IMG/VR virus record: IMGVR_UViG_2541047699_000015
Length of the DNA stretch: 41,468 bases
Reading direction: 5' to 3' (one strand)
Source: a virus
Taxonomy: Duplodnaviria; Heunggongvirae; Uroviricota; Caudoviricetes
Positions 1,072 to 41,468 of this stretch are shown in pieces. Position numbers and translations under genes: made by a program. Numbering within the stretch: position 1 is the stretch's first letter; each line of letters starts with the position of its first letter. The notes below the pieces were generated by a model, which was not told the origin of the DNA, ran no database searches, and was given only the letters and a program-made list of their open reading frames with translations.

Positions 1072-1110
1072 TCGATGTTAGTAACTTCAATCCTATGATT
1101 CGTGAGTATA

Positions 1111-1142: not shown

Positions 1143-1288
1143 CATTCATAGTGCAGAGTCAAATCATTCCCACTCAATTATTTACGGACACCATAACTAA
1201 TTGAGTGATAACATTTTTCCAAAGATGAATTTTTCTCGTACCGTTTTATATACCGTCACCGGAAATCAGTACCATGAAAAATGCCATG

Positions 1289-1771: not shown

Positions 1772-2397
1772 ATAGCCAGCACCTTACTGGCAGTGACGTA
1801 CCGCGCGCGCCGGTCGTCGATGCCGTTCCGGCCACCATTGATAATCAGAGTTACACGTGCAATATCGCCGGTATACTTCATGCATCCTTTGCTGGCAAAG
1901 AACCACGCCGCGCTACGAGCCGCGTATTCGTCCTGCGCCAGCAGTTCAGGACTCTCCAGCAGGTCAACCTTAAGACCGTTTCCACAGTCACGATAGTTAT
2001 TCAAACCGGTAATCTGGATAAGTCCGCGACCACGGTAATTCCAGCCATCACCAGAGGCATTGTTACCCATGCGTTTGCTGTACACCAGATTTGCGATCGC
2101 GCGCTGGCGCTCGAGTGGCAATGGTGGCTCACCAGCACGGCGGCCCAGTGCGTTAGCCTGTCCCTGGGTGAGACGCCCAGCCCGAACGAAGTTAGCCAGT
2201 CCGGTGACGCTGTAGTTGAAATTTTCCTGCAACCGGTTGAAGCCACCAGACTCATGCCCGACCTGAGCAATAAACATTGCCTGATCTTCGGGTTTGCTGA
2301 TACCAAACTCTTTCATCGCAGAAGTTATATGCGAGAACCAGCGTGCGGCCAGCGCCTCGCTAATACCAGCAGCTCGCTGGAATTGTTTAATCTCCAT
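1768..2397 (-). CDS. Endolysin, glycoside hydrolase family 19 (lysozyme/chitinase-like)
   Basis: Motifs GHESGGF and YRGRGLIQITG typical of GH19 phage endolysins; start set at ATG 2397 (MEIKQ) with SD GAGGT 7 nt upstream, not the 286-aa track ORF. Confidence 0.8.
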   Translation of the reverse strand: MEIKQFQRAAGISEALAARWFSHITSAMKEFGISKPEDQAMFIAQVGHESGGFNRLQENFNYSVTGLANFVRAGRLTQGQANALGRRAGEPPLPLERQRAIANLVYSKRMGNNASGDGWNYRGRGLIQITGLNNYRDCGNGLKVDLLESPELLAQDEYAARSAAWFFASKGCMKYTGDIARVTLIINGGRNGIDDRRARYVTASKVLAI

Positions 2398-2695
2398 GTT
2401 TAGACCTCGATATTTTGAAAATATGAACAACGTTACCGCGTGTTTTAATAACCGCGGCAAGCATGACAGCGTTGATAATGACCTCAGATAAATCCACAGC
2501 CATTGGCGTGCGTAACCAGATTGCATAGACGACACGAACAGGAATACTTGCCGCAGCAACAATAAGGAAATAAGCAAGCCACCCTCCCCATCTTCGATGT
2601 TGAGAGCCGTTACGCCGGAATGTGACAACGCGAATTGCTATGCCAGTACAAATAACTGCATTGGTGATAAGCAAAAAAAACTCATGCGTTACCAT
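2387..2695 (-). CDS. Holin/antiholin-like small membrane protein
   Basis: 102 aa with 2-3 hydrophobic helices, directly upstream of and overlapping endolysin start; start overlaps stop of preceding membrane protein. Confidence 0.55.
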   Translation of the reverse strand: MVTHEFFLLITNAVICTGIAIRVVTFRRNGSQHRRWGGWLAYFLIVAAASIPVRVVYAIWLRTPMAVDLSEVIINAVMLAAVIKTRGNVVHIFKISRSKHGD

Positions 2696-3086
2696 CGTCT
2701 TTTCTCCCCGGAATTAACTCGCGTGGATTATCGGAACGGTGATAGAGCCAGATGCCAATACGCACGGCGACAATTGCTGACACGAATGCGCCTGCAGAGA
2801 AAACAATCCCTTTTTCAAAAGAGTCCTGCGTGATGGTAGGGATCAGGCTGGCTATGCCGATAAGAATTGATGCTGCTGGTTTGTAAAAGAGAAGGCCGCA
2901 AAGAAAGCTGAGCATCGACAGGAGCACCCGGCGACGGATGGGGTACTCTACTGCAGAGGTAACAAAAATTACCGCCCCAGCCAAAGCCCCTAAAGCAACC
3001 TCCGGAGGGACACCTGCAATAACCGCAGCAAGAGAACTAACACTAAGCCACTGATTTGAAGTTTCATTGGTTAGTTGGAATGACAT
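2682..3086 (-). CDS. Holin-like membrane protein (3 predicted TM helices)
   Basis: 134 aa, three hydrophobic segments, charged C-terminus; first gene of lysis cassette. Confidence 0.55.
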   Translation of the reverse strand: MSFQLTNETSNQWLSVSSLAAVIAGVPPEVALGALAGAVIFVTSAVEYPIRRRVLLSMLSFLCGLLFYKPAASILIGIASLIPTITQDSFEKGIVFSAGAFVSAIVAVRIGIWLYHRSDNPRELIPGRKDDGNA

Positions 3087-3158
3087 AACGAAACCCGTTT
3101 ATTTGCAAACACCCTGCTTCAGGAAAAGTATACCGCGCAACAACACACCATTTACGGT

Positions 3159-5621
3159 TCAATTCCCTGTTAATTGCAAAACTTGCTCTTCCAGCTTTTT
3201 AACCCTGCGTCTCATCATCGCAGATTCCAGAATCAGAGCCTCTTCATAACGGATACCGTAACATTCACCAGCCTCGACGGCTTCGCGTACCAGAACCTTT
3301 GTCTGTATAAGTGGGTAAACTCCTGCAGAATGCTCTTCTTCCGTCACATCCCTGTATTCTGCCGGGGTCTCATTCCACTTGTCATAACAGATAAATGCCA
3401 GTCGTGACACATCTATGCCTTCATTCTGAAATACACTGATAACATGCTGCGCAACTGCACCAAAGTGCCATCTTGCTCCGTCTTTACCTTTCACTTCGAT
3501 CCTGTCAAGGTACTGGTATGAAACCCATTCCACTCTTTCCCATGCGTCCAGTATTTTCTCATCAATAACCTCTGGAGCAGTCTTGAAACGCGCATCGGAC
3601 AGCACCGTAAACGCTGACTGGGTAAATCCCCCCGACCATGCACGACCAGCCAACCCAAGAGAATAAGTATTCGTTGTCGATGGTGTCATGGCTGAATCAG
3701 AAAACTGTATATATTCTGAATTTCCAGTAGATATTCGAATATTTCCATTTATTAGCGACATAGTGCCTTTAGTATTATCACTATTGAATAATTTCAATTG
3801 CGAACTTATACCGCCTCCCACAGCCAGAGATACATCGCCTTCAGCAAGCATTCTGAATTTATCTGCAGAAACAAGCGTCTGGTTAGCAAGGTTAAAATAT
3901 TTAACCCACCATTCAAAACGCCCTGACATAGTCCCAACGTACTGACCAAGCGCAGGGACGTGAACAACATTGCTATTTGTAGTGCCGTCTATACTGGAAA
4001 TACCAGTCACCGCTGATGCAGAACTCAGAATATTATTTCTGTCACCCGGATGTTTAATTTCAACAAAGTTCCTGATACACCCTTCCTCGAAGGTAACCAC
4101 GCCGGAAGAACTATACATGGGGAATATTGACGCATAATTACTGCGTGCAGCATCTAAGAAACGAATGGTTGTAGATGTCTGCAGATCTCCTGATTCATTT
4201 TTCCCATCACACCCAGTCATTAGAATATTACTGGCAATATTATTATTTCCCTGAACGGTGACTCCGTGCGCCTGCTTTGCGTCCGATTCAGAGTAATCAA
4301 CCAGCACATTCGAAATCAGGTTACCAGTCCCCTTGCCAACAACTACTGCGGCGTATTTTGGGTTGTTAGCCATTACACTGCTAATGATATTATTCGTTGG
4401 GGCAGTTTCCGTCTCAGTTCCATTGTAAACAACGTGCTGACACTCTTCACCAATAACATTGCTGACAATGTTATATTTTGCTGCTGTTTTAAGTTCCACT
4501 GCACCAAACTGAGGATAATTTCTGGCTATCACACCATCAATTAGCGTATTTTGCGATGAATCAAAAAGCACACAACCTGCTTTTTTATTATTTGCGAACC
4601 CTAAATACTCTCCTCTTATATCTCTAACAATGTAACCTGACGGAATACCATTATTCGGATAAGCGATCAAGCTAAATCCTGTTCCTCGCGTATTTGTAAA
4701 TCTGATATTTTTAACCGATACATCATGGCCACCTGAAAATGACACCTGGTGTCCCTGCACACTATCATCTGATTTATTTCCCATAATTGTTAGCGTACTA
4801 AGCATGCCACCATCGGGCATGTTAAAAACCAGATGATTACCATCTCTGTCATACTGTTTTATCGTTCCCCCACCTGTTCCGTACAAGCCACAACGTGAAA
4901 GAGAAACTAAAGATGTATTGAATACCCCTTCCGGAACAAAAACACTGCTAAACGAATGTAATGATTTTGTAAAAGCATCCTTGTTATCATTTAAGATTCC
5001 ATTTTGAGCTCCAAAATCCTTAATGCTGACACCATCACGCATCTTATCCTGGAACGTTCTGTATACCGCTCCAGAACCATACTGAATAAACCAACCAAAA
5101 CCACCAATAACTCCGGCGATTGCAGCATCGACATAATTACGCATTGAGCGATTATTTACAGCGTCCTGCTCAAGTGATGGATCGGCAAGGTTAGATATTC
5201 TGTTTTGCTTTGCATCGTAATATTTTGCAAGCAAAGATGGTTTCATCAATGCACGTCTGAACCACCCAAAACATCGCTGGATCAGCATCGTCAGGTAGTC
5301 AAATGCATCCTCATGAACTTCGGGGAAAAATTTTCCCTGATTGCGAAGATCAGTCTCCTGCACCACATCAAGCACACGCTCTATCGTGATTCGCCAGCCA
5401 GCAGCAAGCGGCGACGGAAGAACCACTGCACCGCCACTATAAGTTCCCGCCCCTGTTACCGTATAACCAGCATCCAGCACTAGTTTTGTAACGTTACCGT
5501 TAAGGTCAGACACCTGAACAACCAGGTCGGATTTTTTGAAAATACGGAAGGTATACGGAAATGATGTCGTAACGCCGTTACCTGTGTATTCGTTGTGGTC
5601 AACTTCGGTTGAGACCGTCAT
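3159..5621 (-). CDS. Tailspike: T7 gp17-like N-terminal anchor, beta-helix (pectate-lyase-like) depolymerase body, C-terminal S74-type autocleaving chaperone
   Basis: N-terminus GNGVTTSFPYTFRIFKKSDLVVQV resembles T7 tail fibre N-terminal domain; Gly/Asn/Ser/Thr-rich repetitive body; C-terminal SDARFK ... WHFG motif of intramolecular chaperone; SD GGAG 8 nt before ATG 5621. Confidence 0.75.
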   Translation of the reverse strand: MTVSTEVDHNEYTGNGVTTSFPYTFRIFKKSDLVVQVSDLNGNVTKLVLDAGYTVTGAGTYSGGAVVLPSPLAAGWRITIERVLDVVQETDLRNQGKFFPEVHEDAFDYLTMLIQRCFGWFRRALMKPSLLAKYYDAKQNRISNLADPSLEQDAVNNRSMRNYVDAAIAGVIGGFGWFIQYGSGAVYRTFQDKMRDGVSIKDFGAQNGILNDNKDAFTKSLHSFSSVFVPEGVFNTSLVSLSRCGLYGTGGGTIKQYDRDGNHLVFNMPDGGMLSTLTIMGNKSDDSVQGHQVSFSGGHDVSVKNIRFTNTRGTGFSLIAYPNNGIPSGYIVRDIRGEYLGFANNKKAGCVLFDSSQNTLIDGVIARNYPQFGAVELKTAAKYNIVSNVIGEECQHVVYNGTETETAPTNNIISSVMANNPKYAAVVVGKGTGNLISNVLVDYSESDAKQAHGVTVQGNNNIASNILMTGCDGKNESGDLQTSTTIRFLDAARSNYASIFPMYSSSGVVTFEEGCIRNFVEIKHPGDRNNILSSASAVTGISSIDGTTNSNVVHVPALGQYVGTMSGRFEWWVKYFNLANQTLVSADKFRMLAEGDVSLAVGGGISSQLKLFNSDNTKGTMSLINGNIRISTGNSEYIQFSDSAMTPSTTNTYSLGLAGRAWSGGFTQSAFTVLSDARFKTAPEVIDEKILDAWERVEWVSYQYLDRIEVKGKDGARWHFGAVAQHVISVFQNEGIDVSRLAFICYDKWNETPAEYRDVTEEEHSAGVYPLIQTKVLVREAVEAGECYGIRYEEALILESAMMRRRVKKLEEQVLQLTGN

Positions 5622-6389: not shown

Positions 6390-6896
6390 ATGCCAGGCCA
6401 AAAAATCTCAAACGACGATCTGTATTGGTTAATTTCTAATTCTCCACTCCTTCTTATGCTAAGGCAAGAAAGTGCACCACTGGTCAGTGAATTGATTAGC
6501 TGTAGAAATAGAATGTGGGATGAAGGGGCAGATTTAGATACCAATTTGTTTGATCATCTTATGCAACTAGCAGTCGATAACAAGGCAAAACTACGCTCTG
6601 AATACAACGCTTATCCAGAAATAGCAAAATACCTTAACGCTGAAATACTTGGTGGACCAGGTCAACCAGACCTAAAAACAAAAGATGGTTACCCTGTTGA
6701 GGTGAAGGTAGATACTTTTTCTCCTTCAGCATTAAAACAATTATTAAGGTATATGGATGCTTCTGGCGCAGATTTTGGTTTTGCTTGTGCAAAAACTCTT
6801 TCTGTAAAACTCCCTGAAAACATAAAGTTCATCCAGTTAGATTATAAAGATAATTGCTATTTCGTCGTGAAAGATGGAGGCAATGAAAATGCGTAA
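6390..6896 (+). CDS. Hypothetical protein (accessory island)
   Basis: SD AGAGG 7 nt before ATG 6390; 168 aa; no family recognised; stop overlaps next start (ATGCGTAA). Confidence 0.6.
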   Translation: MPGQKISNDDLYWLISNSPLLLMLRQESAPLVSELISCRNRMWDEGADLDTNLFDHLMQLAVDNKAKLRSEYNAYPEIAKYLNAEILGGPGQPDLKTKDGYPVEVKVDTFSPSALKQLLRYMDASGADFGFACAKTLSVKLPENIKFIQLDYKDNCYFVVKDGGNENA

Positions 6897-7608
6897 TATA
6901 GCTATTGATAAGTTGCCGATAACAACTCATTGCAACATCCCTGTAATGACTACAGAAATGCTTGCTGATTTGTATGACACAGAACCCAAACTGATTCGTC
7001 AAAACTATCAACGAAATGCAGATCGATTCATTGAGGGAAAACATTGTTTCAAGCTGATAGGCGAAGAATTACGAGCATTTAAGAACGAGTCCTCTCAAAG
7101 AGGTTTGCTTAATATTGCACCAAAAGTAAGTCATCTTTTCTTATGGACCGCTCGCGGTGCAGCACGACATGCGAAAATTCTTGAGACTGAAAAAGCGTGG
7201 GAGGTCTTCGAAAAACTGGAAGATTGCTACTTCGACAGAAAACCCGCAAATGTCAGCGGAGATGTTCGTCTCTCAGGTGGAGCTGATTTATCAAAGGCCA
7301 CTCAGGTAATTGAAAAATTCATGCCCGCCATTATGGAGGCGATCAAGCTGGAAGACAAAAAAGAATACAGTGCCCCACTGAAGCCCGGCTACCGCAGTCT
7401 GATTCATTCTCCGTCTGGTGTTCTCGGCCTGACGGAGAACTCATTGCTGATGAATCTGCTGAATCAGTTGCAGGACGACGGGCATGATGTATCGGGCGCG
7501 GCGGCGGAGCTGACCACCATGTTCTGCTACATCGTCGGTGTGAGCAAATGCCTGCGTGATATCCAGACCCACGCGGAGTACATCAACGACAAAGCAGGAT
7601 TCTTCTGA
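6889..7608 (+). CDS. ORF6N-domain protein (phage antirepressor-like) with C-terminal domain shared with 5818-6075
   Basis: N-terminal segment VMTTEMLADLYDTEPKLIRQNYQRNADRF...LWTARGAARHAKIL resembles ORF6N domain of antirepressor-type proteins; start at ATG 6889 with SD GGAGG 8 nt upstream. Confidence 0.6.
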   Translation: MRNIAIDKLPITTHCNIPVMTTEMLADLYDTEPKLIRQNYQRNADRFIEGKHCFKLIGEELRAFKNESSQRGLLNIAPKVSHLFLWTARGAARHAKILETEKAWEVFEKLEDCYFDRKPANVSGDVRLSGGADLSKATQVIEKFMPAIMEAIKLEDKKEYSAPLKPGYRSLIHSPSGVLGLTENSLLMNLLNQLQDDGHDVSGAAAELTTMFCYIVGVSKCLRDIQTHAEYINDKAGFF

Positions 7609-7737: not shown

Positions 7738-8064
7738 ATGACAAAACTTGGATTCGTGATGAGAGGTCCGGTAAGAAGCGGAACTCATGCAAAGCGTAGC
7801 AAGAGTCGTATTTTTACTGGTAAGGTTGTAGCACGTAAATCAGCTATTGGCTCGTTCAATAGTGAAAATGCGGCATTGCGCCATATTTTTATCAGCACAA
7901 AGCCAAGAGCATCCGCTGATGTGCATACAATGTCTATTCCTATCACAAAGAATATCAAGCGGATAAAAAAGCTCTCATCTGCAGAATCAAAAGAGATATC
8001 TTTCCGCCAGCTTAACTCATTAGAAACGCATATGAAGGAAGAGGAATTCGATGTTTTTGAGTGA
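7738..8064 (+). CDS. Basic small protein, possible antitoxin-like partner of downstream gene
   Basis: SD GGAG 7 nt before ATG; 108 aa, basic N-terminus, acidic C-terminus; C-terminal RQLNSLETH faintly resembles YefM/Phd NSLEE motif; 14-nt overlap with next gene. Confidence 0.5.
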   Translation: MTKLGFVMRGPVRSGTHAKRSKSRIFTGKVVARKSAIGSFNSENAALRHIFISTKPRASADVHTMSIPITKNIKRIKKLSSAESKEISFRQLNSLETHMKEEEFDVFE

Positions 8065-8563
8065 GTATAGCGGGAAGGTTATACCTACTGGTGAGTTTAA
8101 AACTGATGACTTTCTGATTTCGCTAAAAGATGCTTTTAAACAACACTGGCGTCATGGTCATCATCCTGATCTGGGAAAAGATACTCTTTTTGAAAGACCA
8201 GACGAAGTATTAGGCTTCCATCTCAGAAAGGTTCATGTCAATATTGGTGAATATGCATCATATTCATACTCATGTACTGAACAGTGTTGGGATGAGTGGT
8301 CATATGGATTGATTGATGAACAAGGAAATTACAGGCCAAAACCAACCAGTAACGCATATCTCATATATGCAGTCAATGAAATAAGAGATGCAGCCTTACT
8401 AGCTTATTGGGACCCGCCCGCACACACCAAAGCTAACGCAAAAGTTTGGATGGATTCCGTATTGAATTTCACAAAATTATTTCATGAACGAACGAATACA
8501 GCTCCACTTAGTAGAAATGTTTATCCGTGGGATTATTCGTACAAATCCAAAAAGCCTGCATAG
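8051..8563 (+). CDS. Candidate YafO-like toxin family protein (tentative)
   Basis: Segments DAFKQHWRHGHHPDLGKDTLFERPDE and FHLRKVHVNIGE resemble remembered E. coli YafO (DFISYKRDGVLPDTFGRDALYDD, ERVAHIHLANE); from memory only. Confidence 0.4.
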   Translation: MFLSEYSGKVIPTGEFKTDDFLISLKDAFKQHWRHGHHPDLGKDTLFERPDEVLGFHLRKVHVNIGEYASYSYSCTEQCWDEWSYGLIDEQGNYRPKPTSNAYLIYAVNEIRDAALLAYWDPPAHTKANAKVWMDSVLNFTKLFHERTNTAPLSRNVYPWDYSYKSKKPA

Positions 8564-25850: not shown

Positions 25851-25927
25851 GTGGCATTAGCTCAGTTGGACAGAGCAACCGCCTTCTAAGCGGTTGGTCG
25901 CAGGTTCGAATCCTGCATGCCACGCCA
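25851..25927 (+). tRNA. tRNA-Arg (anticodon UCU), phage-encoded argU-like
   Basis: Cloverleaf read by eye: acceptor stem GTGGCAT/ATGCCAC, D-arm GCTC...GAGC, anticodon stem ACCGC/GCGGT with loop CTTCTAA (anticodon TCT at 25885-25887), T-arm GCAGG-TTCGAAT-CCTGC, discriminator G, encoded CCA. Confidence 0.9.
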
Positions 25928-31818: not shown

Positions 31819-31847
31819 AGATCGTCGATTCATGCCGATCTATTTTT
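31819..31847. terminator. Hairpin terminator overlapping HNH gene stop
   Basis: AGATCG-loop-CGATCT flanked by A5 and T5 runs. Confidence 0.45.
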
Positions 31848-32438
31848 CATCAGTGATTCATAAAACTTTTGCCACTTATGCCGACCGAAATTAGCCTTCG
31901 AGTTACAGCTCGAACAAAGGCAAATAAGGTTCTCCTGACGACAATCTTGCTTGTCGTAATTGATGTGATGAGTTGTTAGCCTTTTGTCTGTTCCATCACA
32001 ACCTGGGTTCTGACAAGTAAAACCATCTCGCTCAATAACCCTCTTGCTCGTTTCTCGGAAATCCCACGGATACGGCAATCTCGATAATCCACCAGACCAG
32101 TTTGGATTTCCTTCCCCCTTCATCAGAGAAGAACGCATTATGTTGGAACACTGTTTCGAGCAGCATTTATGACGCTTCTCATGACTCAAGAAAACGGAGA
32201 ACGAAGATCCGCATACGCAGCATATTTTTAATACTCGCTTTAGTTCCCGATTTACCGTCTTGCCTCGCTGTGAAATTCCTACACACTGAAGTGAGCAGAA
32301 CCTTGAAGATGAGTTGGCTCGCTTAACCTGATATTGCCTGCCACATACGGAGCAAACCTTTTCGATTTTCCCACCCTTCCAATTCGGGTTTTTATCACCG
32401 GATACAATCAATCCCGCAGCATTGGGCTTCTCGCTCAT
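31830..32438 (-). CDS. HNH endonuclease with multiple Cys zinc-binding motifs
   Basis: CxxC pairs and HHINYDKQDCRQENLICLCSSCNSK (HNH motif). Confidence 0.75.
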   Translation of the reverse strand: MSEKPNAAGLIVSGDKNPNWKGGKIEKVCSVCGRQYQVKRANSSSRFCSLQCVGISQRGKTVNRELKRVLKICCVCGSSFSVFLSHEKRHKCCSKQCSNIMRSSLMKGEGNPNWSGGLSRLPYPWDFRETSKRVIERDGFTCQNPGCDGTDKRLTTHHINYDKQDCRQENLICLCSSCNSKANFGRHKWQKFYESLMKNRSA

Positions 32439-32905: not shown

Positions 32906-33691
32906 TTACTTGATAAATCCTGCCGCCTTTCCCCGCCTGTATTCCTCCATCAGCCACTGCGCCGGTGTTATTCCCCCCAGGGTAGCGGCGTTAGGCATAC
33001 ACCCGAAACTTCGCCCTGGTGGATGGTAAACGTCTCTCCCTGTGTCCGGAGGCGTACTCATGGGTTCTGGCTTTGCCTGTATGCTGATCACCGGATCGGG
33101 TATCTGCTGTCCGGAAGCCACCTTTTTCGCCCAATCATCAAGCAGCCTGCGCGCGTGTTTCTCAACCTCAATCTCGCTAAGCTGGCGCTGATACATTGCA
33201 CGGCGGGTATCACATACGACCCAGTACATAACCGGATGCCGCCACGGGAATCTTTCGGGACCACCAGGATATAAACTTTTTTCCTTGCTGTACCGGTGAA
33301 ACTCCGCCATCACATCGTCAATGGTGACGCCAAGAACCATCTTGCTGTCTTTGCACCACTTGATAAATTGCCCTGGAGACGGCCAGAACGGAGATTCACT
33401 GGCGCGGGCGTGGCGCATACCAGCAGAAACCTGTTCACGGGTTCGGATCCCCCCTTCGGCAAACGCAGCAATCCACTGCTGTTTTGCAGCAACTTCCTGC
33501 TCTGGCGTCTTCAGGTTGGTTACCACTGCCGCCGGAAACAGTTGTTTCAGCTGTTTAAAAAGGGCATCAACAAGCCTCTCTGCTGACATGTTCACCACAT
33601 TGTCATTGTTGACGTACTGATGCTCATAACCTGACATGCGAGAAAGGGCTTCTCCGTCACGGTTTTGTATCGCGGTAAAAACGTTGTTCAC
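32906..33691 (-). CDS. Replication protein P-like (helicase loader)
   Basis: Segment QQWIAAFAEGGIRTREQVSAGMRHARASESPFWPSPGQFIKWCK closely resembles lambda P (RRQWVLAFRENGITTMEQVNAGMRVARRQNRPFLPSPGQFVAWCR) from memory; probable GTG start 33691 with SD GGAGGA, overlapping O-like stop. Confidence 0.75.
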   Translation of the reverse strand: MNNVFTAIQNRDGEALSRMSGYEHQYVNNDNVVNMSAERLVDALFKQLKQLFPAAVVTNLKTPEQEVAAKQQWIAAFAEGGIRTREQVSAGMRHARASESPFWPSPGQFIKWCKDSKMVLGVTIDDVMAEFHRYSKEKSLYPGGPERFPWRHPVMYWVVCDTRRAMYQRQLSEIEVEKHARRLLDDWAKKVASGQQIPDPVISIQAKPEPMSTPPDTGRDVYHPPGRSFGCMPNAATLGGITPAQWLMEEYRRGKAAGFIK

Positions 33692-34503
33692 AAGAAATCC
33701 TCCCATGCTTCAGGGCTGTTCCAGTGCGGAACGTTGTTATCAGGTAATGTTGATTGCTTCTGTCTGCTAATCTGCAGCCGCCTTGCCAGCTTCTGCTCCC
33801 ACTGTGCCTGATGGTATGCCTTACCCTCAGCCATCCAGTAAATTCTGAACTCTGCAAGTTCCTGTGCCGTTGGCAGACTGTCCAGGTAGATCCCCTGCAA
33901 TGAGCTTTTCCGAAGAAAGTCATCTGATGGCTGCCATTGTTCATGCATGACAAATTTGCCTAATTGCCCTGGCCCACCAGGAGGAACAAAGTTATTCATC
34001 ACGGCGTTGTTTGCTCCGGGGTCATGAGGCACAGAATCCCCGCTTTTTGTCCTGCTCTCCCTCTCTTGGTTAAATGACTGGTTATATGACTGGTTCTGGA
34101 TCCCGTTTTTGGGATCATTCAACATCCCGTTTTTGGGATCATTCAACATCCCGTTTTTGGGTATATTCCCGTTTTCGGGTATATTCCCGTTTTCGGGTTC
34201 ATTGCCCCCCTCCCGGTTGCCTTTAATGTTCCCGTTTTTGGTTATATTAAGAGAGAAAACCCGCACTCTTTTTGTCGCTCCCTTTCTCTCTCCGGTATCT
34301 GAAATAATCCCCATTTTCATGAGCGATATAAGCCCGGCCTGCACGGTTTTTTTATTCAGGCAAGTGTCTTTAACGAGGCGTTCTATGCTGGGGTAGCAGA
34401 GGTTATATTCATCAGCTCTGTCAGCCATCGAGAGCAGTATGAGCTTTAATGATGAGCTACCTGGATCTGTCTCCCAAGCCCAATCTGTTGCATGTCTGCT
34501 CAT
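33688..34503 (-). CDS. Replication initiator (lambda O-like) with internal iterons
   Basis: N-terminal winged-helix-like domain, central repeat NGNIPENGNIPKNGMLNDPKNGMLNDPKNG encoded by DNA iterons, C-terminal domain; SD GGAG before ATG 34503. Confidence 0.7.
   Translation of the reverse strand: MSRHATDWAWETDPGSSSLKLILLSMADRADEYNLCYPSIERLVKDTCLNKKTVQAGLISLMKMGIISDTGERKGATKRVRVFSLNITKNGNIKGNREGGNEPENGNIPENGNIPKNGMLNDPKNGMLNDPKNGIQNQSYNQSFNQERESRTKSGDSVPHDPGANNAVMNNFVPPGGPGQLGKFVMHEQWQPSDDFLRKSSLQGIYLDSLPTAQELAEFRIYWMAEGKAYHQAQWEQKLARRLQISRQKQSTLPDNNVPHWNSPEAWEDFL
34101..34247. repeat. Origin iterons (six direct repeats, core TCCCGTTTT(T/C)GGG) inside O-like gene
   Basis: Copies start at 34101, 34125, 34149, 34167, 34185, 34230; first two are identical 24-mers. 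Confidence 0.8.
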
Positions 34504-34518
34504 GATTAATCTCCGCTA

Positions 34519-34719
34519 TCAGCTTGAATGTTGTGGGGAGGAATTAATCATGATCTGCTTAATCTCTGCCCTGATGCGACGGTTTGACTCCATGGTGCAC
34601 TCAACACAGTGTCCGTTGTAAACCCAGCGTTCACTGTCATGTCCGTGCTTACATGGTTTTCCGGTGTAGTAGCGTTTAAGTCCGCGCTTTGCGGCATCAA
34701 TACGTGTAATGATTTCCAT
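34519..34719 (-). CDS. Small Cys/His-cluster regulatory protein in CII-like position
   Basis: Start ATG 34719 (MEIITR...); motif GKPCKHGHDSERWVYNGHCVEC; between cro-like and O-like genes. Confidence 0.5.
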   Translation of the reverse strand: MEIITRIDAAKRGLKRYYTGKPCKHGHDSERWVYNGHCVECTMESNRRIRAEIKQIMINSSPQHSS

Positions 34720-34798
34720 GGTAAGCCCTGTTATTAGTATTGGGATTACGGTTATTTTGTGCTGACACAAAAAAAAGATCAACCAGATTTGGTTTTTT

Positions 34799-34815
34799 AT
34801 TACCTTTGAGGTACG
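34799..34815. promoter_or_regulatory. Operator ATTACCTTTGAGGTACG downstream of cro terminator
   Basis: One perfect half-site and one 4/5 half-site. Confidence 0.5.
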
Positions 34816-34824
34816 AATAGATAT

Positions 34825-34847
34825 GAAAAGACCGCCGGATGGCGGTC
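34825..34847 (-). terminator. Weak terminator after cro-like gene
   Basis: Minus-strand hairpin GACCGCC-ATCC-GGCGGTC followed by TTTTC. Confidence 0.45.
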
Positions 34848-34869
34848 TACAGAGGGTTGTTGCCAGATA

Positions 34870-35100
34870 TCATGAGTAGAAGAAGTATGCCAGTTCCGCT
34901 TTTGAGCGCAGCCATTGTCTTGTTTTACAGGCTTTAAAAAGCCCATTCATCAATACCTTACCTGGCATTTTGCGCTTACCTGTTAAGTGAGTCTGGATAT
35001 AGTGACTCGTCGTTCCGGCTTCCTGTGCGAAGGCTTCACGCTCATCCGGAGTAAGTGCAAGCCAGTGCTTTTTGAAATCGAAATGTCCGTTATCGCTCAT
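34870..35100 (-). CDS. Cro-like HTH regulator
   Basis: 76 aa, first gene of the operon that contains the replication genes, divergent from CI-like gene; HTH-like segment AFAQEAGTTSHYIQTHLTG. Confidence 0.6.
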   Translation of the reverse strand: MSDNGHFDFKKHWLALTPDEREAFAQEAGTTSHYIQTHLTGKRKMPGKVLMNGLFKACKTRQWLRSKAELAYFFYS

Positions 35101-35135
35101 AGCTATTGCCTGATATTTATTTCAGATAATAAATA

Positions 35136-35200
35136 TTCACCCATAAGGTAACAAAAATCAAGGATAGTTACCTATGGGGTGCATTTACCTGTTGGGTAAT
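35136..35200. promoter_or_regulatory. OR-like region: three operators between cro-like and CI-like genes
   Basis: TTCACCCATAAGGTAAC (35136-35152), GTTACCTATGGGGTGCA (35167-35183), TTTACCTGTTGGGTAAT (35184-35200); candidate -10 TAATAT at 35197-35202. Confidence 0.6.
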
Positions 35201-35254
35201 ATTGCTTTAAATTGAATCATCTACTGATTCATATATGAGGCGATTTTCCAGAAA

Positions 35255-35839
35255 ATGAAAAGTATCCAGGACGTCCGCAGGCAAAATCTCAACGACTTGA
35301 TCGACCGTGAATTCAATGGTGTTCAGACGCGGATGGCAGAAAAACTTGGAACTCAGGCAAATCTGGTAAACCGCTGGGCTCTTGGCAAGAAGGTTATCGG
35401 CGACCAGGTTGCGCGAAAAATTGAAGCTGCCGCCAATAAACCCCGTAACTGGCTTGATATCGATCGCTCGCTTTCTCAGGAAGGTTTTCAGCCTGTCGGC
35501 CCAAGCGACATTGGTCAGCTGGCAGCTCACAACCTGGAACGCTGGATGAGTGAAAGCCGCGACCTTTCAACTCAGGGAAAACTTCACCGCGCATCCGGCG
35601 TCGCCCAGGTGACAATAAGCCGCCTGTTAAACAATGAGGTCAGCGTTTCCATTTCCACCCTGGAGAATGTTGCATCTGCATTCGGGCGTCACGGATATGA
35701 ACTACTGATTCATCCGCATGACCCTGCGACCATCAACTATGATCGCTCGCGCTACGCATTGTTACCCGAAACCGAGAAAGCAAAGATCGAAAGTTACATT
35801 GAATTTGTCATCAACCAGAACGAAAAAAACAAACAATAA
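35255..35839 (+). CDS. CI-like prophage repressor with two tandem HTH (XRE-type) domains, no peptidase domain
   Basis: HTH1 about residues 20-60 (QTRMAEKLGTQANLVNRW), HTH2 about 110-150 (LHRASGVAQVTISRLLNN); 194 aa; no LexA-like Ser/Lys autocleavage module. Confidence 0.65.
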   Translation: MKSIQDVRRQNLNDLIDREFNGVQTRMAEKLGTQANLVNRWALGKKVIGDQVARKIEAAANKPRNWLDIDRSLSQEGFQPVGPSDIGQLAAHNLERWMSESRDLSTQGKLHRASGVAQVTISRLLNNEVSVSISTLENVASAFGRHGYELLIHPHDPATINYDRSRYALLPETEKAKIESYIEFVINQNEKNKQ

Positions 35840-35860
35840 AACCATATTTTTCAGTAAGTA

Positions 35861-35883
35861 AGTCGCCTTATGGCGGCTTTTTT
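35861..35883 (+). terminator. Rho-independent terminator after CI-like gene
   Basis: Hairpin AGTCGCC-TTAT-GGCGGCT followed by T6. Confidence 0.7.
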
Positions 35884-35895
35884 ATTGCCTATTCG

Positions 35896-35974
35896 ATTAC
35901 CTAACGGGTAATTTTTTTAACTCATATCTATTGACATCAAACCATATACGCATAATTATTACCTCAACGGTAAC
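35896..35974 (+). promoter_or_regulatory. OL-like region: operator, -35 TTGACA, operator
   Basis: ATTACCTAACGGGTAAT (35896-35912); TTGACA 35931-35936; ATTACCTCAACGGTAAC (35958-35974) starting 22 nt after -35. Confidence 0.6.
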
Positions 35975-35992
35975 AGACCGAGGTAACAAGTT

Positions 35993-36145
35993 ATGCAGTG
36001 GAAAATCATCAACGGTTGGTACTGCGTTACTGCATGCGGATTCATGAGCTGGAAGTTCCGCACCTTACAGGAAGGCATTAAGTGGGCTTTCGTCAGCAAA
36101 GAAGCTCGCGATGTGGCCAACGATAACGAGATATGGGAGGGCTGA
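35993..36145 (+). CDS. Small Trp-rich protein (50 aa), not in ORF track
   Basis: SD GAGGT 8 nt before ATG 35993; stop overlaps next start (TGATAATG). Confidence 0.45.
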   Translation: MQWKIINGWYCVTACGFMSWKFRTLQEGIKWAFVSKEARDVANDNEIWEG

Positions 36146-36147
36146 TA

Positions 36148-36447
36148 ATGAACGTTAATCAGCAGAAAAATCTTCAAAAAATCATGCTGGCATTCGACAA
36201 GGACTACCGTCTGTCAGAACAGCTATATGACCGACAAGTTGAACTGATTGAGAGTATCCGGCTTCATCAACTGGCATCAACTTTCGACGTTGTAACAGTT
36301 AAAGGCGTTCGCCAGGAAGTACTGGAGGCCGCTAAAGACAGCCCTGAGTTCGAAGAACTAATGGATGCCTACCGGCGCGAGGCAATGGCAATTATCGCCC
36401 GCTGGGATCTGGCTGATCAGCTTGATGGGCAGAGGGACGCGGCATGA
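36148..36447 (+). CDS. Hypothetical early protein
   Basis: SD GGGAGGG before ATG 36148; 99 aa. Confidence 0.5.
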   Translation: MNVNQQKNLQKIMLAFDKDYRLSEQLYDRQVELIESIRLHQLASTFDVVTVKGVRQEVLEAAKDSPEFEELMDAYRREAMAIIARWDLADQLDGQRDAA

Positions 36448-37265
36448 AACCGGGAATTTATTTCGACATCAGCAACGAAGACTACCACGCCGGTGACGGC
36501 GTGAGTAAGTCGCAACTGGACATGGTTGCCAAGAATCCGGCGCTTCTTAAATGGGTTCAGGCAGCACCAGAAGACGAAGAGAAAAAGTCTGCACTGGATA
36601 TGGGAACCGCATTGCACTGTCTGCTTCTGGAGCCTGGAGAGTTCGACAAACGCTTCATTGTTTCACCGAAATTCGATCGTCGGACGAAACAAGGTAAAGC
36701 TGACGAAGAGGAATTTCTTCGTGATGTGGCGGATATGGGGATTACGGTACTTGATGCCGAGCAGTGGCGGAAACTGGAGCTGATGCGTGATAGCGCAATG
36801 GCTCACCCGGCGGCACGCTGGATGCTGGAAGCACCTGGTTACTGCGAAGCATCAATGTACTGGAACGATGAAGAGACGGGGGAGTTGTGCCGAATTCGTC
36901 CAGACAAATGGCTGAACGAGCACAACGTGATCGTCGACGTGAAAAAGGTTGCAGATATGGACCGTTTTGCACGCCACATCGAGGAATTCCGCTACCACGT
37001 GCAGGACGCAATGTACCGCGAAGGCGCAATGAGGGTTACTGGTCAGCCGCATGGTTTTTTCTTTCTTGCCGTGAGCGAAAGCATTGATTGTGGTCGGTAT
37101 CCGGTACGCGTGTTCGAGCTGGATGCGCAGGATGTCGATGCCGGGCACGCTCTGTTCCGCCGGGATCTGAATACCTATCACGAATGCCGCATCAATGATG
37201 AATGGGGCGGTGTGGAAATCATTAAACGCCCTGAGTGGGCACGCAAACAGGATATGTACATATGA
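36444..37265 (+). CDS. Recombination exonuclease (YqaJ/lambda-Exo-like PD-(D/E)xK)
   Basis: Motifs RPDKW ... VIVDVKK; immediately upstream of annealing-protein gene with overlapping stop/start. Confidence 0.6.
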   Translation: MKPGIYFDISNEDYHAGDGVSKSQLDMVAKNPALLKWVQAAPEDEEKKSALDMGTALHCLLLEPGEFDKRFIVSPKFDRRTKQGKADEEEFLRDVADMGITVLDAEQWRKLELMRDSAMAHPAARWMLEAPGYCEASMYWNDEETGELCRIRPDKWLNEHNVIVDVKKVADMDRFARHIEEFRYHVQDAMYREGAMRVTGQPHGFFFLAVSESIDCGRYPVRVFELDAQDVDAGHALFRRDLNTYHECRINDEWGGVEIIKRPEWARKQDMYI

Positions 37266-38203
37266 GCAACGACATCGCAAACATCAACGCACCAGTAGAC
37301 ACAGCAATCGCTGGAACTGCTGCAACTATTTTCAGCCCAGACGGCTTGAACCAACTGATGAAATTCGCCGAGGTAATGGCGCAAAGCCGCGTAACGGTAC
37401 CGGCGCACCTCGCCGGGAAACCAGCTGATTGCATGGCCGTGGCAATGCAGGCTGCGCAGTGGGGAATGAACCCGTTTGCCGTGGCTCAGAAAACCCATGT
37501 TGTGAACGGCACGCTAGGTTATGAAGCCCAATTAGTAAACGCAGTTATCTCAACGATGTCGCCAACAAAAGATCGCATCAACTACGAGTGGTTCGGGCCG
37601 TGGGAACGCGTGATCGGTAAGTTTGTTGAGAAAACATCCAAAAACGGCAATCCATATATCGCACCAGGCTGGACTCTAAAAGACGAAGAAGGCTGCGGTG
37701 TTCGCGTATGGGCAACCATGAAGGGCGAGGATCAACCTCGAGTGCTTGAGTTAATGCTGTCTCAAGCACAGGTAAGAAACTCCACACTTTGGGCCAGTGA
37801 TCCGAAACAACAACTCGCATACCTTGCGACAAAACGCTGGTCTCGCCTGCACTGTCCTGACGTAATCATGGGCGTCTACACCCCAGACGAATTACAGGAA
37901 ACGGCACCGCGCGTTGAGCGAGACATTACTCCGCAAACGACCACTGCTGCGGGAATGAACAGTCTGATCAACGCTAAACCAGCGAAAAAGCCTGATGAGC
38001 AAACGCGTAAATCGGACAGCCGTGATCCAGAAGAAATGCTGATGGCCTTTACCAGCGCAGCGATGAATTACAGCACTGTCTCCGAACTGGATAAGGCTTA
38101 CAAATACATTGCACAAAAACTTTCAGATGATGACGAACTGCTGGCAAAAGCAACCGACGTTTACAGCGTTCGTCGGGAAGAATTAAACGAAACATCTATG
38201 TAA
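37262..38203 (+). CDS. Single-strand annealing protein (RecT/Redbeta family)
   Basis: DCMAVAMQAAQWGMNPFAVAQKTHVV resembles lambda Bet DAQFIALLIVANQYGLNPWTKEIYAF from memory; paired with exonuclease. Confidence 0.6.
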   Translation: MSNDIANINAPVDTAIAGTAATIFSPDGLNQLMKFAEVMAQSRVTVPAHLAGKPADCMAVAMQAAQWGMNPFAVAQKTHVVNGTLGYEAQLVNAVISTMSPTKDRINYEWFGPWERVIGKFVEKTSKNGNPYIAPGWTLKDEEGCGVRVWATMKGEDQPRVLELMLSQAQVRNSTLWASDPKQQLAYLATKRWSRLHCPDVIMGVYTPDELQETAPRVERDITPQTTTAAGMNSLINAKPAKKPDEQTRKSDSRDPEEMLMAFTSAAMNYSTVSELDKAYKYIAQKLSDDDELLAKATDVYSVRREELNETSM

Positions 38204-38252
38204 CCACCACCGCGGCGCCACGTGCGCCGCACTGCAACCAAGAGAGGTATTC

Positions 38253-38501
38253 ATGAAAGGTGCATTAGGTAAGAAAGAACTCCTGGCGGTGGTGCCACTG
38301 TCATGGAGCACTATCGACCGTATGGAGCGCGCAGGGGAATTTCCTAAACGCTGGTATATCACCGATAAACGCTGCGCATGGAACCGTGATGAAGTTGAGC
38401 GTTGGCTTGATGAACGTCAGGCAGCAAGCCCGGCAGAGTTCCAGGGTAAAAAGCCTCCTGTTCAGCAACGTGTATATCGTCCCGTGAGCAACGCTGCATG
38501 A
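38253..38501 (+). CDS. AlpA-family HTH protein (candidate excisionase/regulator)
   Basis: 82 aa; pattern VPLSWSTIDRMERAGEFPKRWYI...WNRDEVERWL typical of AlpA/Xis-type proteins. Confidence 0.55.
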   Translation: MKGALGKKELLAVVPLSWSTIDRMERAGEFPKRWYITDKRCAWNRDEVERWLDERQAASPAEFQGKKPPVQQRVYRPVSNAA

Positions 38502-38610
38502 GTGCGCTGCTAAGGCACTGGAGCAAATGGTCAGGATGGTACTTATTCCTGGCCTCTGTTTCAGCATGGCTTTATCTGCTGGCATTAATTTTCAGAGAGG
38601 GTTGGATTAA

Positions 38611-38910
38611 GTGAGAAAGTTAAGCCGACTTGAAAAATATCACATGAATAAGGTTTCAATGCGCAGTCCGTCAAAGATTGTCGCCGTTACTCCTGCGGCG
38701 ATAGAGATCGAAAAACGCGCGATTGAAAGAGAGAAAAAAGGGCAATTCCGCATTGCCGCTCACCTTTGGCTTCAGTGTATGGATGTTGCTTCTGGTGATG
38801 TTGAACGTGCAAGGATCGCGGTTCGCAGGGACCAATGTATCACAAAAGGTAACGGCCTTCGCCGTGGCGACTATAGCGGCATAGGATGTTGTGGGGTGGT
38901 TTATGACTAA
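38611..38910 (+). CDS. Hypothetical protein
   Basis: GTG start with SD GAGAGGG; stop overlaps methyltransferase start. Confidence 0.4.
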   Translation: MRKLSRLEKYHMNKVSMRSPSKIVAVTPAAIEIEKRAIEREKKGQFRIAAHLWLQCMDVASGDVERARIAVRRDQCITKGNGLRRGDYSGIGCCGVVYD

Positions 38911-39553
38911 GAAATACACACTAATCTATGCAGATCCACCCTGGGTATACCGGGACAAAGCCGCAGATGGTAATCGCGGTGCCGGTTTTAAATATCCGGT
39001 TATGAGTGTGCTGGATATCTGCCGCCTTCCTGTGTGGGATTTGGCCGATGAAAACTGTCTGTTGGCCATGTGGTGGGTGCCAACACAACCACTCGAAGCA
39101 CTAAAAGTTGTTGAAGCCTGGGGATTCCGTCTGATGACGATGAAGGGCTTCACGTGGATAAAATGTGGTAGTCGACAACCAGATAAACTGGTTATGGGTA
39201 TGGGACACATGACTCGCGCCAATAGTGAAGATTGCCTGTTTGCGGTAAAGGGAAAACTACCTACGCGCATTAATGCAGGGATCGTTCAGTCATTTACCGC
39301 ACCGCGGCTTGAGCATTCAAGAAAGCCAGATATCGTTCGTGAAAAACTTGTGCAATTATTAGGCGATGTTTCTCGCATTGAACTGTTCGCCCGCCAGACG
39401 TCTCATGGCTTCGATGTTTGGGGTAATCAGTGCGAAGACCCGGCAGTGCAACTACACCCTGGATACGCGTTGGATATCGGCGGATTAACAAATGCATTCA
39501 GCAATGCTCCGCTGTCACCAACAGACAACCAGGGGCGGGAGCGTGCAGCATGA
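38903..39553 (+). CDS. MT-A70-family DNA N6-adenine methyltransferase (orphan)
   Basis: Catalytic motif IYADPPW near N-terminus; no restriction endonuclease gene nearby. Confidence 0.7.
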
Positions 39554-40209
39554 ACCTATATCAACGCATCAATGGCGCTGACTGGTGCAATATCTTCGTC
39601 GTCGGCGATCTGCATGGGTGCTACACGCTGCTGATGAACGAACTCGACAAAGTTTCATTCGACCCGGCGCGCGATTTGCTTATTTCCGTTGGTGACCTTG
39701 TTGACCGCGGCGCTGAAAACGTCGAATGCCTGGATTTGATTACTATGCCGTGGTTCCGAGCTGTTCGTGGCAACCATGAGCAGATGATGCTGGATGCACT
39801 GGTCAACGGCGGAAGTTTCGGACATTGGATGTCAAACGGCGGTGGATGGTGGCACCAACTTGATTCTGAGCAGGATGTGCAACTCAAATACCTTCTGCCA
39901 AAGGTTACCAACCTCCCGATGATTATCGAACTGGTTACCGGCAATAAGAAGGTCGTCATCTGCCACGCAGACTACCCGCACAACGAATACGCATTCGATA
40001 AGCCAGTACCGGAAGAAATGGTGATATGGAATCGTGAGCGGGTTAGCGACGCGCAGGACGGTATTGTCTCGGAGATAACCGGTGCCGATTTGTTCATCTT
40101 CGGTCATACGCCAGCACATCACCCACTGGTGTATGCAAACCAAATGTACATCGACACCGGCGCAGTGTTCTGCGGAAATCTGACGCTTACCAAAGTCCAG
40201 GAAGGATAG
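39550..40209 (+). CDS. Ser/Thr protein phosphatase (lambda PPase-like metallophosphoesterase)
   Basis: Motifs GDLHG, GDLVDRG, GNHE; start ATG 39550 overlapping methyltransferase stop. Confidence 0.8.
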
Positions 40210-40211
40210 AA

Positions 40212-41468
40212 TTATTTATTACTGTCTTCCATCCACTTCTCAAACTTCGACGGGGAGAACGGAATCAGATCCGTATGCTCCCCGTTAATCCAGGAATCAA
40301 TCATATCGGCCCACTGCTGCAACATGTAGGCGCGCTGTCTGGCGTATTCCGCTTTGTTATATACGGCGCGCACACCTTTCTGCTCGTGTGCCAGAGCCTT
40401 TTCAATCCAGTCTGAAGGATAACCAGCCTCATGCAACAATGTACTGGCTGTACGGCGCATATCATGTACAGTAAAATCCTGAATATGCTCACCATCTTCA
40501 TTTATTATTTTCACCGTTCTGTCGATCAGAGAGTTCAGCGCGGCATTAGATAATGGCTTCCGGAAATTGTAACGACCAGGAACCAGATATTCACTTCCAC
40601 CAGCGCACATCTGCAACCCGACTAATATATCCTGTGCCTGTTTAGGCAGGTAAATAACGTGCGCCCGACTTCCCTTCATGCGGTCTGAAGGAATTGTCCA
40701 TGTCCATTTTTTAAAATCTATTTCATCCCACGTTGCATTGGTGAATTCTCCCTTACGAACCATGGTGATAAGCACCAGCTTTAAAGCCATTTTCATAGTG
40801 CCCATAGCACCAATGGCATCCAGCGTGCGGAAGAACAGGCCAATTTCTTCTGGTGTCAGTGTTCGCTCTCGTGGTTTAAATATGGCGATAGACGAAGGTT
40901 TAATGTCAGCCGCAGGATTAAACAAACCATGACCACGGTCATTGGCGTGACGGTATACGCTGCTGATGATCTCCCTGGCCTGTACTGCTGTTGCCCGACC
41001 ACCGCGTTCGACAATCCGGTCACACAAATCACGAACCATTGATGTGGTAATTTCAGCCATCATTTTGTTGCCAAGAACCGGAAGTATGTCACGGTCGATC
41101 ACCGCCTGCTTCATTGCGCGGGTACTGTCAGCCAGGATGACGTGTTTCATATAACTGTCGGTATGTACCGCAAACGTCTCGGCACCACGAATCTTTTTAA
41201 TACCGTCACGTTTAGCCGCAGCCGGTGACTGGCCTGCTTTAAGCAGCTTCTTTGCAGCAATCAGTTCTTCTCGCGCTTCTGCCAGGCTGATACCGTCACG
41301 CCCATACTGCCCGATTACCAGTGTTTCGCGGCGACCGTTGATACGGTAGTCATAGCGAAACGAGACCGTGCCTGACGTAAGCACAGCTACATACAGCCCG
41401 TCACGATCGGAGACCTTGTACAGTTTGTCCTGCGGCTTGAGGTTTTTTAATTTTGTATCGGTAAGCAC
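40212..41468 (-). CDS. Tyrosine integrase, P4-type (N-terminus cut by window end)
   Basis: N-terminal LTDTKLKNLKP arm-binding-like domain; C-terminal catalytic region with HxxR (HDMRRTAST) and terminal Tyr region; convergent with phosphatase gene. Confidence 0.8.
   Translation of the reverse strand: MLTDTKLKNLKPQDKLYKVSDRDGLYVAVLTSGTVSFRYDYRINGRRETLVIGQYGRDGISLAEAREELIAAKKLLKAGQSPAAAKRDGIKKIRGAETFAVHTDSYMKHVILADSTRAMKQAVIDRDILPVLGNKMMAEITTSMVRDLCDRIVERGGRATAVQAREIISSVYRHANDRGHGLFNPAADIKPSSIAIFKPRERTLTPEEIGLFFRTLDAIGAMGTMKMALKLVLITMVRKGEFTNATWDEIDFKKWTWTIPSDRMKGSRAHVIYLPKQAQDILVGLQMCAGGSEYLVPGRYNFRKPLSNAALNSLIDRTVKIINEDGEHIQDFTVHDMRRTASTLLHEAGYPSDWIEKALAHEQKGVRAVYNKAEYARQRAYMLQQWADMIDSWINGEHTDLIPFSPSKFEKWMEDSNK

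Follow-up and report, generated by a model that had tools for sequence, protein, structure and literature searches.

Do two enzyme genes that lie side by side at the edge of a prophage belong together, and what would the enzymes act on? The question is raised by a 41,468-nucleotide (nt) stretch of DNA, the IMG/VR record IMGVR_UViG_2541047699_000015 (Caudoviricetes), called the window hereafter at its full length, in which an MT-A70 family methyltransferase gene is followed by a gene for a lambda NinI-type Ser/Thr phosphatase and, on the other strand, by an integrase gene. Both open reading frames (ORFs) were found at the positions that a preliminary description, made from the letters alone, had assigned to them (Table 1), and the signals at the locus exceed by far what chance would produce. 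The explanation that we favour, and to which we give as a whole a probability of roughly 70%, is that the two genes would close an early-left operon as its final cistrons, the first encoding a nucleic-acid methyltransferase and the second being a mosaic ninI cassette. The operon would run in the order RecE-like, RecT, AlpA-like, membrane peptide, PerC-like, methyltransferase and phosphatase, and its genes would be repressed in the lysogen and expressed upon induction or infection. Early in lytic growth, the methyltransferase would act on phage or host DNA (at GATC, as M.EcoGV), on 16S ribosomal RNA (rRNA; as the enzyme of phage PA8 with its partner PNB-2) or on both, tuning induction or replication while serving no restriction system. 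The phosphatase, which would use the resident ribosome-binding site and ATGA start of its slot, would probably strip phosphates from Ser, Thr, Tyr and His residues of host proteins in lytic growth, as an accessory function like its counterpart in lambda.

The methyltransferase aligned with the whole MT-A70 profile of Pfam (PF05063, positions 1 to 172 of 172, E=2.6e-22, 80 bits against a cutoff of 23.9) and carries the DPPW motif at residues 11 to 14, which bears out the family assignment of the preliminary description; it also matched PHROG 359, labelled "DNA methyltransferase" (E=3e-120), and the REBASE-derived Type II methyltransferase model of PADLOC (E=2.7e-77). In an alignment of 26 enterobacterial homologues, residues 1 to 176 form a conserved core and the tail varies freely. 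W14, S139, K141, P142, R158, E160, F162, W173 and G174 are invariant in this alignment, D11, P12 and N175 are kept in at least 90% of the homologues, and the conserved residues fall in the motifs DPPW, HS(R/A)KP, RIELFAR and WGN(Q/E). The order of the motifs is that of class beta, with motif IV (DPPW) lying N-terminal to the motifs that bind S-adenosylmethionine (SAM).

The AlphaFold model of the protein is of moderate confidence overall (mean predicted local distance difference test score of 68.6), with low confidence in the tail and in two loops. Its comparison by Foldseek pointed, over the whole length, to the methyltransferase domain of METTL3 and to the ciliate MTA1 (E of about 3e-12, probability 1.0, template modelling score of about 0.6), the same relatives that were returned by sequence searches of the PDB. 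The protein resembles them in its fold, in its motif order and in the size of a catalytic domain without a nucleic-acid-binding module, but the identity is only about 20%. Moreover, the solved relatives are subunits of heteromers throughout (METTL3-METTL14, MTA1-MTA9-p1-p2), METTL3 and MTA1 being obligate heterodimer subunits with known partners, whereas the window has no paralogous partner gene. No target-recognition or DNA-recognition domain was recognisable in the model, in which there is no room for one. The product is thus predicted to be, most likely, an active SAM-dependent N6-adenine enzyme that works either in dimeric form or together with a small partner.

Which partner that might be is best approached from the Shiga toxin (Stx) phages, where a close relative has been studied. 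Over residues 1 to 187, the methyltransferase shares 156 of 187 positions (83%) with M.EcoPA8orf6770P, gp5 of the Stx2a phage PA8, an enzyme whose type is carried by about 120 Stx2-converting phage records; past residue 187, where the alignment stops, the C-terminal tails are unrelated (29 aa here, 21 aa in the PA8 enzyme). The PA8 locus (KP682374.1) and its genes were found by means of the primers and the terminator sequence published in PMC10810198. According to this source, M.EcoPA8orf6770P raises spontaneous induction and virulence, and the change of DPPW to APPA abolishes its function (PMC10810198). By itself, it has weak and unspecific activity on DNA, unmethylated GATC DNA included. The gene upstream, which overlaps its own, encodes PNB-2; enzyme and PNB-2 bind each other 1:1, and the preferred substrate of this complex is the 16S rRNA of 30S subunits (PMC10810198). 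The C-terminal stretch of about 27 residues of the enzymes of the Shiga-toxin-producing E. coli (STEC) type has been proposed to be necessary for PNB-2 binding (PMC10810198). Our enzyme and M.EcoPA8orf6770P or M.EcoGV are alike in being a single MT-A70 domain with DPPW, encoded near the integrase end and overlapping a small upstream gene; the phages themselves differ, PA8 being a Shiga-toxin phage of the Sepvirinae with PNB-1 and PNB-2 genes upstream, and the window a Uetakevirus with AlpA-like and PerC-like genes in their place.

It could then be supposed that the methyltransferase provides the catalytic subunit for a 16S rRNA enzyme of two proteins that sets the rate of spontaneous induction, a PerC-family or host protein replacing PNB-2. 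The identity of the catalytic domain to that of PA8 speaks for this possibility, as do the preference of the PA8 enzyme for rRNA over DNA, a model lacking a target-recognition domain in a family where every solved relative sits in a heteromer, and the fact that in PA8 and in the window alike the upstream gene overlaps the methyltransferase start. However, the tail linked to PNB-2 binding is unrelated here, PNB-2 was not found in the window, and the PerC-like protein gave no BLASTP alignment with PNB-2 at E≤100. Furthermore, the modified rRNA base has not been identified even in PA8. On balance, we regard such a two-protein rRNA enzyme as unlikely.

The neighbourhood of the gene in other phages also bears on the partner. 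We rejected PerC as a partner conserved by rule, since one or two other genes intervene between it and the methyltransferase gene in Tyrion, in SPC32H and in a Klebsiella phage, and this separation, together with the Stx phage 06-3462, where a PA8-type methyltransferase stands behind yet another small upstream gene, counts against PerC as a substitute for PNB-2. Rare in-frame PerC-methyltransferase fusions, P0048 (297 aa) and P0046 (263 aa), might be cited in favour of such a role, but each occurs in a single contig assembled from raw reads; in P0048 the two reading frames run together at the 8-nt overlap, and from P0046 an internal PerC stretch is missing. Both probably stem from errors of sequencing or assembly or from mutations (indels), and do not attest a partnership. 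Counterparts of PNB-1 and PNB-2 in the window were likewise considered and rejected: PNB-2 does not resemble the PerC-like protein, and PNB-1 is an ORF6N protein, unlike the AlpA-like one. Hence, the shared order of a helix-turn-helix (HTH) gene, a small gene and the methyltransferase gene is positional only. To judge from these comparisons, the catalytic subunit is common to both phage types and the partner, if any, is not. In the Salmonella phage SPC32H, we also observed a 355-aa gene labelled "DNA-sulfur modification protein" (locus L008, 937-2004) directly upstream of the MT-A70 gene and overlapping it.

The other substrate to be weighed is DNA. The absence of a cognate endonuclease, claimed in the preliminary description, held in our scans: among the variable-region ORFs searched with Pfam and PADLOC, and in the RefSeq annotation, no restriction enzyme was found, and the only genes flanking the methyltransferase are those of the PerC-like protein and the phosphatase. 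The nuclease-like matches in the window were limited to the RecE-like exonuclease and an HNH ORF (Table 1), which we rejected as the cognate endonuclease because it lies 6.5 kb away on the opposite strand. The prophage shows no depletion of GATC (144 sites observed, 156 expected). By these searches, the methyltransferase is an orphan and not part of a Type II restriction-modification system.

An orphan enzyme of the classical kind would mark replicating phage DNA with methyl groups at a specific motif, either to let the progeny escape restriction in the next host or to regulate packaging and replication. The Type II model of REBASE descent, the lack of an endonuclease in the scanned ORFs and the undepleted GATC are all in line with it, and the predicted early-lytic operon would bring the enzyme forth just when phage DNA replicates and could be modified. 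Moreover, relatives are listed in REBASE as GATC N6-adenine enzymes, and M.EcoGV, near-identical to M.EcoPA8orf6770P, methylates GATC in vivo upon over-expression (PMC10810198, PMC6602927). However, in E. coli, which has Dam already, GATC methylation would bring little more than its completion on replicating DNA that is under-methylated; on DNA, unmethylated GATC included, the close homologue was only weakly active once purified; and a DNA-recognition domain could not be recognised in the model. This classical role is a possibility to be entertained, though with odds that fall short of even.

These considerations also qualify the anti-restriction or host-methylation role put forward in the preliminary description, which is generic and overlooks that the 83%-identical PA8 enzyme is reported as weak on DNA with a preference for 16S rRNA (PMC10810198). 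The comparison of lysogen and non-lysogen methylomes that accompanied it would be uninformative even with an active enzyme if the operon is repressed, if the target is GATC in a Dam-positive host or if the target is rRNA.

Besides matching the Metallophos profile (PF00149, E=1.2e-15), the phosphatase aligned without gaps to the lambda protein phosphatase of structure 1G5B, residues 1 to 217 on residues 1 to 217, with 66.8% identity (E=6.7e-100), in agreement with the lambda-like identity first proposed for it. All nine of the active-site positions checked are identical to those of the lambda enzyme, namely D20, H22, D49, R53, N75, H76, H139, R162 and H186 in lambda numbering, which we take to be the metal-binding and catalytic residues in 1G5B. 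It also matched phrog_246, labelled "NinI-like" (E=9e-108), and NinI-like phosphatases occur in about 1,450 phage records. Orthology with the host phosphatases PrpA and PrpB was rejected, the scores lying below both equivalog cutoffs of NCBIfam (PRK09968, 266 bits against 326; PRK11439, 221 against 332). In length, in metal-binding and catalytic residues and in ungapped full-length homology, the protein is like lambda NinI (ORF221), but lambda ninI belongs to the nin region, which lies between P and Q in the early-right operon, whereas the gene of the window sits between methyltransferase and integrase genes, on the early-left side. By these alignments, the gene is a bona fide ninI of the lambdoid nin region. 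In lambda, ninI is dispensable (PMC10695390).

Two other roles were considered for this enzyme. A function as recombination directionality factor, for which Bxb1 gp47 offers a parallel (PMC12287305), was rejected because the active site is intact, the identity to the lambda phosphatase is 67%, the integrase is a tyrosine recombinase and a candidate excisionase of the AlpA type is present. Alternatively, the phosphatase might act on nucleotides or RNA ends, as a 2',3'-cyclic phosphodiesterase in RNA-end healing or by Ap4A-type hydrolysis, or might counter a kinase-based host defence or toxin. The lambda phosphatase reportedly has 2',3'-cyclic phosphodiesterase activity, which counts in favour of such a role. 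There are, in addition, phrog matches to RNA ligase-associated phosphoesterase domains and, at the level of the family and far under all the cutoffs, a weak resemblance to ApaH, to PrpE and to the phosphatase domain of bacterial Pnkp, and the substrates of phage metallophosphoesterases are varied (PMC12287305). Nevertheless, the lambda enzyme, to which the identity is 67%, has a broad range of protein substrates in vitro, the adjacent genes include none for a kinase, a ligase or defence, and the phosphatase gene is an interchangeable cargo cassette, so that we consider a nucleotide- or RNA-directed function improbable.

That the gene behaves as a cassette emerges from the comparison with phage phiV10, which is identical to the window up to GCAGCATGA, where the methyltransferase stop overlaps the next start, and again from about codon 413 of the integrase gene. 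The stretch between these points is taken up by a DUF1382 gene (64 aa) in phiV10 and by the phosphatase ORF in the window; other relatives carry other small genes in this slot between methyltransferase and integrase. The integrases of the two phages are 99% identical except for the last five codons, which fall within the cassette junction. An 88%-identical phosphatase is encoded in Citrobacter prophages within a canonical NinB-NinE-NinI-NinG-Q array, and the homology of that ninI DNA to the window begins at CAGCATGA and ends at the stop codon; the ninI genes of HK225 and phi80 share 79% DNA identity with the phosphatase gene. These boundaries indicate that the gene is ninI and that it entered a variable cargo slot as a cassette cut exactly to the ORF, the slot supplying its ribosome-binding site and start codon. 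On the same evidence, methyltransferase and phosphatase genes are adjacent by mosaicism, through a cassette swap, and are not a conserved functional pair.

Comparison of further relatives gives the same picture of the slot. The DNA of the phiV10 locus (gp33, "DNA methyltransferase"), of vB_EcoP_PAS61 and of BP9 is 98 to 99% identical to the window, and phiV10 alone of these was noted with DUF1382 in the place of the phosphatase; a DUF1382 gene 3' of the methyltransferase gene is common to phiV10 and the Shiga-toxin phages, whereas the window has the phosphatase there. PAS61 and BP9 have the identical methyltransferase-phosphatase-integrase order at 98% DNA identity, and PAS61 labels the genes "adenine DNA methyltransferase" and "serine/threonine protein phosphatase NinI". 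Some side observations concern this region. The cassette swap rewrote the last five codons of the integrase gene relative to phiV10 (its 3' end, 40212-40228). At the phosphatase/integrase junction (40207-40214), where the two stop codons are 2 nt apart in convergent orientation, confirming the adjacency to the integrase noted earlier, no terminator-like site was seen before 41234; it follows that early-left transcripts should run antisense through the integrase gene. As for DUF1382, the primers given in PMC10810198 for a construct of PNB-2 with the methyltransferase map to positions 3354 and 4580 of PA8, so that this construct also holds the entire DUF1382 ORF (4368-4580). A role of DUF1382 in the PA8 holoenzyme is not taken up in the available part of PMC10810198; its gene is the occupant of the slot that is filled by the phosphatase in the window.

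We then have to consider when the two genes would be expressed. The preliminary description placed both in the direction in which CI is transcribed, and they do lie on the strand of the repressor gene; co-transcription with it is, however, unlikely. The repressor gene, the homologue of phiV10p40 (in its annotation, similar to the putative repressor of epsilon15), is directly followed by a hairpin and T-run, and the equivalent site of phiV10 is annotated as a putative rho-independent terminator. Beyond it lies the best sigma-70-like promoter site of the region, flanked by operator-like palindromes of the form TTACC-N5-GGTAA (Table 1). From a terminator after the repressor gene and a separate, operator-flanked promoter, we infer a repressible early-left operon and not co-transcription with the repressor. 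The palindrome, found by a motif scan, occurs in 14 copies in the window with at most one mismatch, against 0.67 expected; these copies could constitute a multi-site repressor regulon. Two of them (35137 and 35185) lie, along with a related site that matches by half (35168), in the divergent intergenic region between the repressor gene and a cro-like gene.

Downstream of the promoter, the genes are tightly packed. From the AlpA-like gene on, each stop codon overlaps the next start: the membrane peptide gene overlaps the AlpA stop by ATGA and the GTG start of the PerC gene by GTGA, the PerC stop and the methyltransferase start share 8 nt (ATGACTAA), and methyltransferase and phosphatase genes overlap by 4 nt (ATGA, 39550-39553). 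The phosphatase ATG is preceded, at a distance of 8 nt, by a Shine-Dalgarno sequence (GGGAG), which together with the ATGA overlap substantiates the translational coupling suggested before. The stretch 38200-38900 yielded no promoter-like site, and a scan of 34500-41468 against Rfam gave no hits at E≤0.1. For PerC, the 99-aa form that starts at GTG aligned with positions 1 to 99 of the 99 of phrog_868 (E=5.7e-62); RefSeq calls an 83-aa form from the ATG at 38659. Methyltransferase and phosphatase genes are thus probably early-lytic genes, silent in lysogens, if the predicted signals are taken at face value.

Several points weigh against the explanation that we favour. The operators and the promoter are predictions at the level of consensus sequences, and an internal promoter may allow expression in the lysogen, as with the Shiga-toxin-phage homologue, which is reportedly transcribed in lysogens from a stationary-phase promoter (PMC10810198). 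The GATC assignment of M.EcoGV comes from over-expression only and is questioned by the authors of the PA8 study (PMC10810198). The transfer of the rRNA function from the PA8 enzyme is uncertain, as the tail of 29 residues differs and PNB-2 is absent. Furthermore, in Salmonella prophages that show the same adjacency of methyltransferase and phosphatase genes, the methyltransferase is called at 215 aa (probably P0051, a form about 80% identical), and this recurrence in Salmonella may leave room for some selection on the pair. The boldest reading would be a module for the takeover of translation, in which the PNB-2-less enzyme, alone or with the overlapping PerC-family protein, methylates rRNA as lytic growth sets in, the ninI phosphatase, whose cassette is repeatedly kept directly downstream in E. 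coli and Salmonella, dephosphorylates proteins of translation or of the stress response, and the pair sets the frequency of induction. We regard this reading as very improbable.

As to the setting, the matches described below identify the source element as a phiV10/epsilon15-like (Uetakevirus) temperate podovirus prophage that is inserted beside guaA. The final 10 kb of the window are 99.8% identical to the guaA-side prophage of E. coli Ecol_AZ146, and phiV10 is 98% identical to window positions 33213-39555. The same methyltransferase-phosphatase arrangement occurs in guaA prophages of Salmonella. The exact methyltransferase sequence and the exact phosphatase sequence are each present on at least 1,000 public contigs. 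A 2-kb query region was matched in 641 of 5,426 complete E. coli genomes, with the full arrangement in 143 and the weaker matches being mostly ninI or Shiga-toxin-phage methyltransferases; the methyltransferase locus itself was found at ≥95% identity in about 543 complete E. coli records, and about 144 of these close loci, roughly a quarter, have the phosphatase form of the slot. The two genes are therefore real, but the same annotation already stands in PAS61, in RefSeq and in thousands of genomes, and is already known.

Other observations concern the rest of the window. Its first 1.27 kb or so (1-1274) are 96.6% identical to a stretch of NZ_CP018991.1 bearing the host genes yfgH and yfgI, and the two ORFs found there are their counterparts; it follows that the window spans one prophage-chromosome junction, near 1.1 to 1.3 kb, while it ends at the annotated start of the integrase gene. 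A tRNA-Arg gene lies inside the prophage. In the variable region adjoining the tail fibre gene, a gene for an ORF6N-domain protein, of the same family as PNB-1 of PA8 and antirepressor-like KilAC proteins, is a neighbour of a YafO-like ORF. The 14 palindromes start at 5494, 5726, 6107, 7681, 25514, 28663, 28681, 32792, 32854, 34800, 35137, 35185, 35897 and 35959, those outside the immunity region forming clusters at about 28.7 and 32.8 kb, around the tRNA gene and close to the tail-fibre/antirepressor-like region. Lastly, phiV10 (locus L002, 3244-5004) has one fused RecE-RecT ORF where the window (36444-38203) and RefSeq have two genes overlapping by ATGA, probably owing to a frameshift or a different gene call in one of the two records.

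Table 1. Features of the window, with positions counted from its first nucleotide
Feature	Position	Strand	Details
yfgH counterpart	1-516		
yfgI counterpart	532-1071		
ORF6N-domain protein	6874-7608	+	E=1e-18
YafO-like ORF	8051-8563	+	weak YafO-toxin match, E=9.5e-4
tRNA-Arg	25851-25927	+	anticodon TCT; between portal/structural and terminase genes
HNH ORF	31830-32438	-	202 aa; early-right region; PADLOC ZorE-type HNH models, E=3.5e-10; Pfam HNH_3 below threshold
Repressor-like HTH protein ("CI" of the phage type)	35255-35839	+	194 aa; Pfam HTH_3, E=1.2e-9
Terminator-like hairpin and T-run	35860-35887 (hairpin 35860-35879)	+	directly after repressor gene; 8-bp stem with 5 GC pairs, then TTTTATTGCC
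Operator-like palindromes	35897-35911, 35959-35973 (element 35897-35973)	+	TTACC-N5-GGTAA, flanking the promoter
Putative early-left sigma-70-like promoter	35931-35959	+	TTGACA-17-AATTAT
Two small early genes of unknown function	35993-36145, 36148-36447	+	RefSeq annotation of the 99.8%-identical stretch
RecE-like PD-(D/E)XK exonuclease (DUF3799)	36444-37265	+	PF12684, E=9.5e-23; ATGA overlap with RecT gene
RecT single-strand annealing protein	37262-38203	+	Pfam RecT, E=2.2e-44; start from RefSeq
AlpA-family small HTH protein, probable excisionase/regulator	38253-38501	+	Phage_AlpA, E=3.1e-5; phrog_66 "excisionase and transcriptional regulator", E=2e-16
Membrane peptide	38498-38614	+	38 aa; phrog_17484, E=2.6e-27; phiV10p35 annotated as membrane protein
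PerC-family protein	38611-38910	+	99 aa from GTG; Pfam PerC, E=6e-7, 30.1 bits (cutoff 22.6)
MT-A70 family N6-adenine methyltransferase (predicted)	38903-39553	+	216 aa; catalytic domain only
Lambda NinI-type Ser/Thr (PPP-family) metallophosphatase	39550-40209	+	219 aa; inserted cassette
P4-type tyrosine integrase	40212-41468	-	convergent with phosphatase gene

For phage specialists, there is nothing surprising in the locus, which is nonetheless a clean case of gene-exact cassette exchange, DUF1382 against ninI. DNA, rRNA or both may be the substrate of its MT-A70 enzyme, which comes from a non-Stx phage and lacks PNB-2. The value of the analysis lies mainly in annotation, in that a very common prophage enzyme of E. 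coli and Salmonella is closely related to the only MT-A70 phage enzyme with published biology, the PA8 relative, which, according to PMC10810198, controls spontaneous induction and the release of Shiga toxin.

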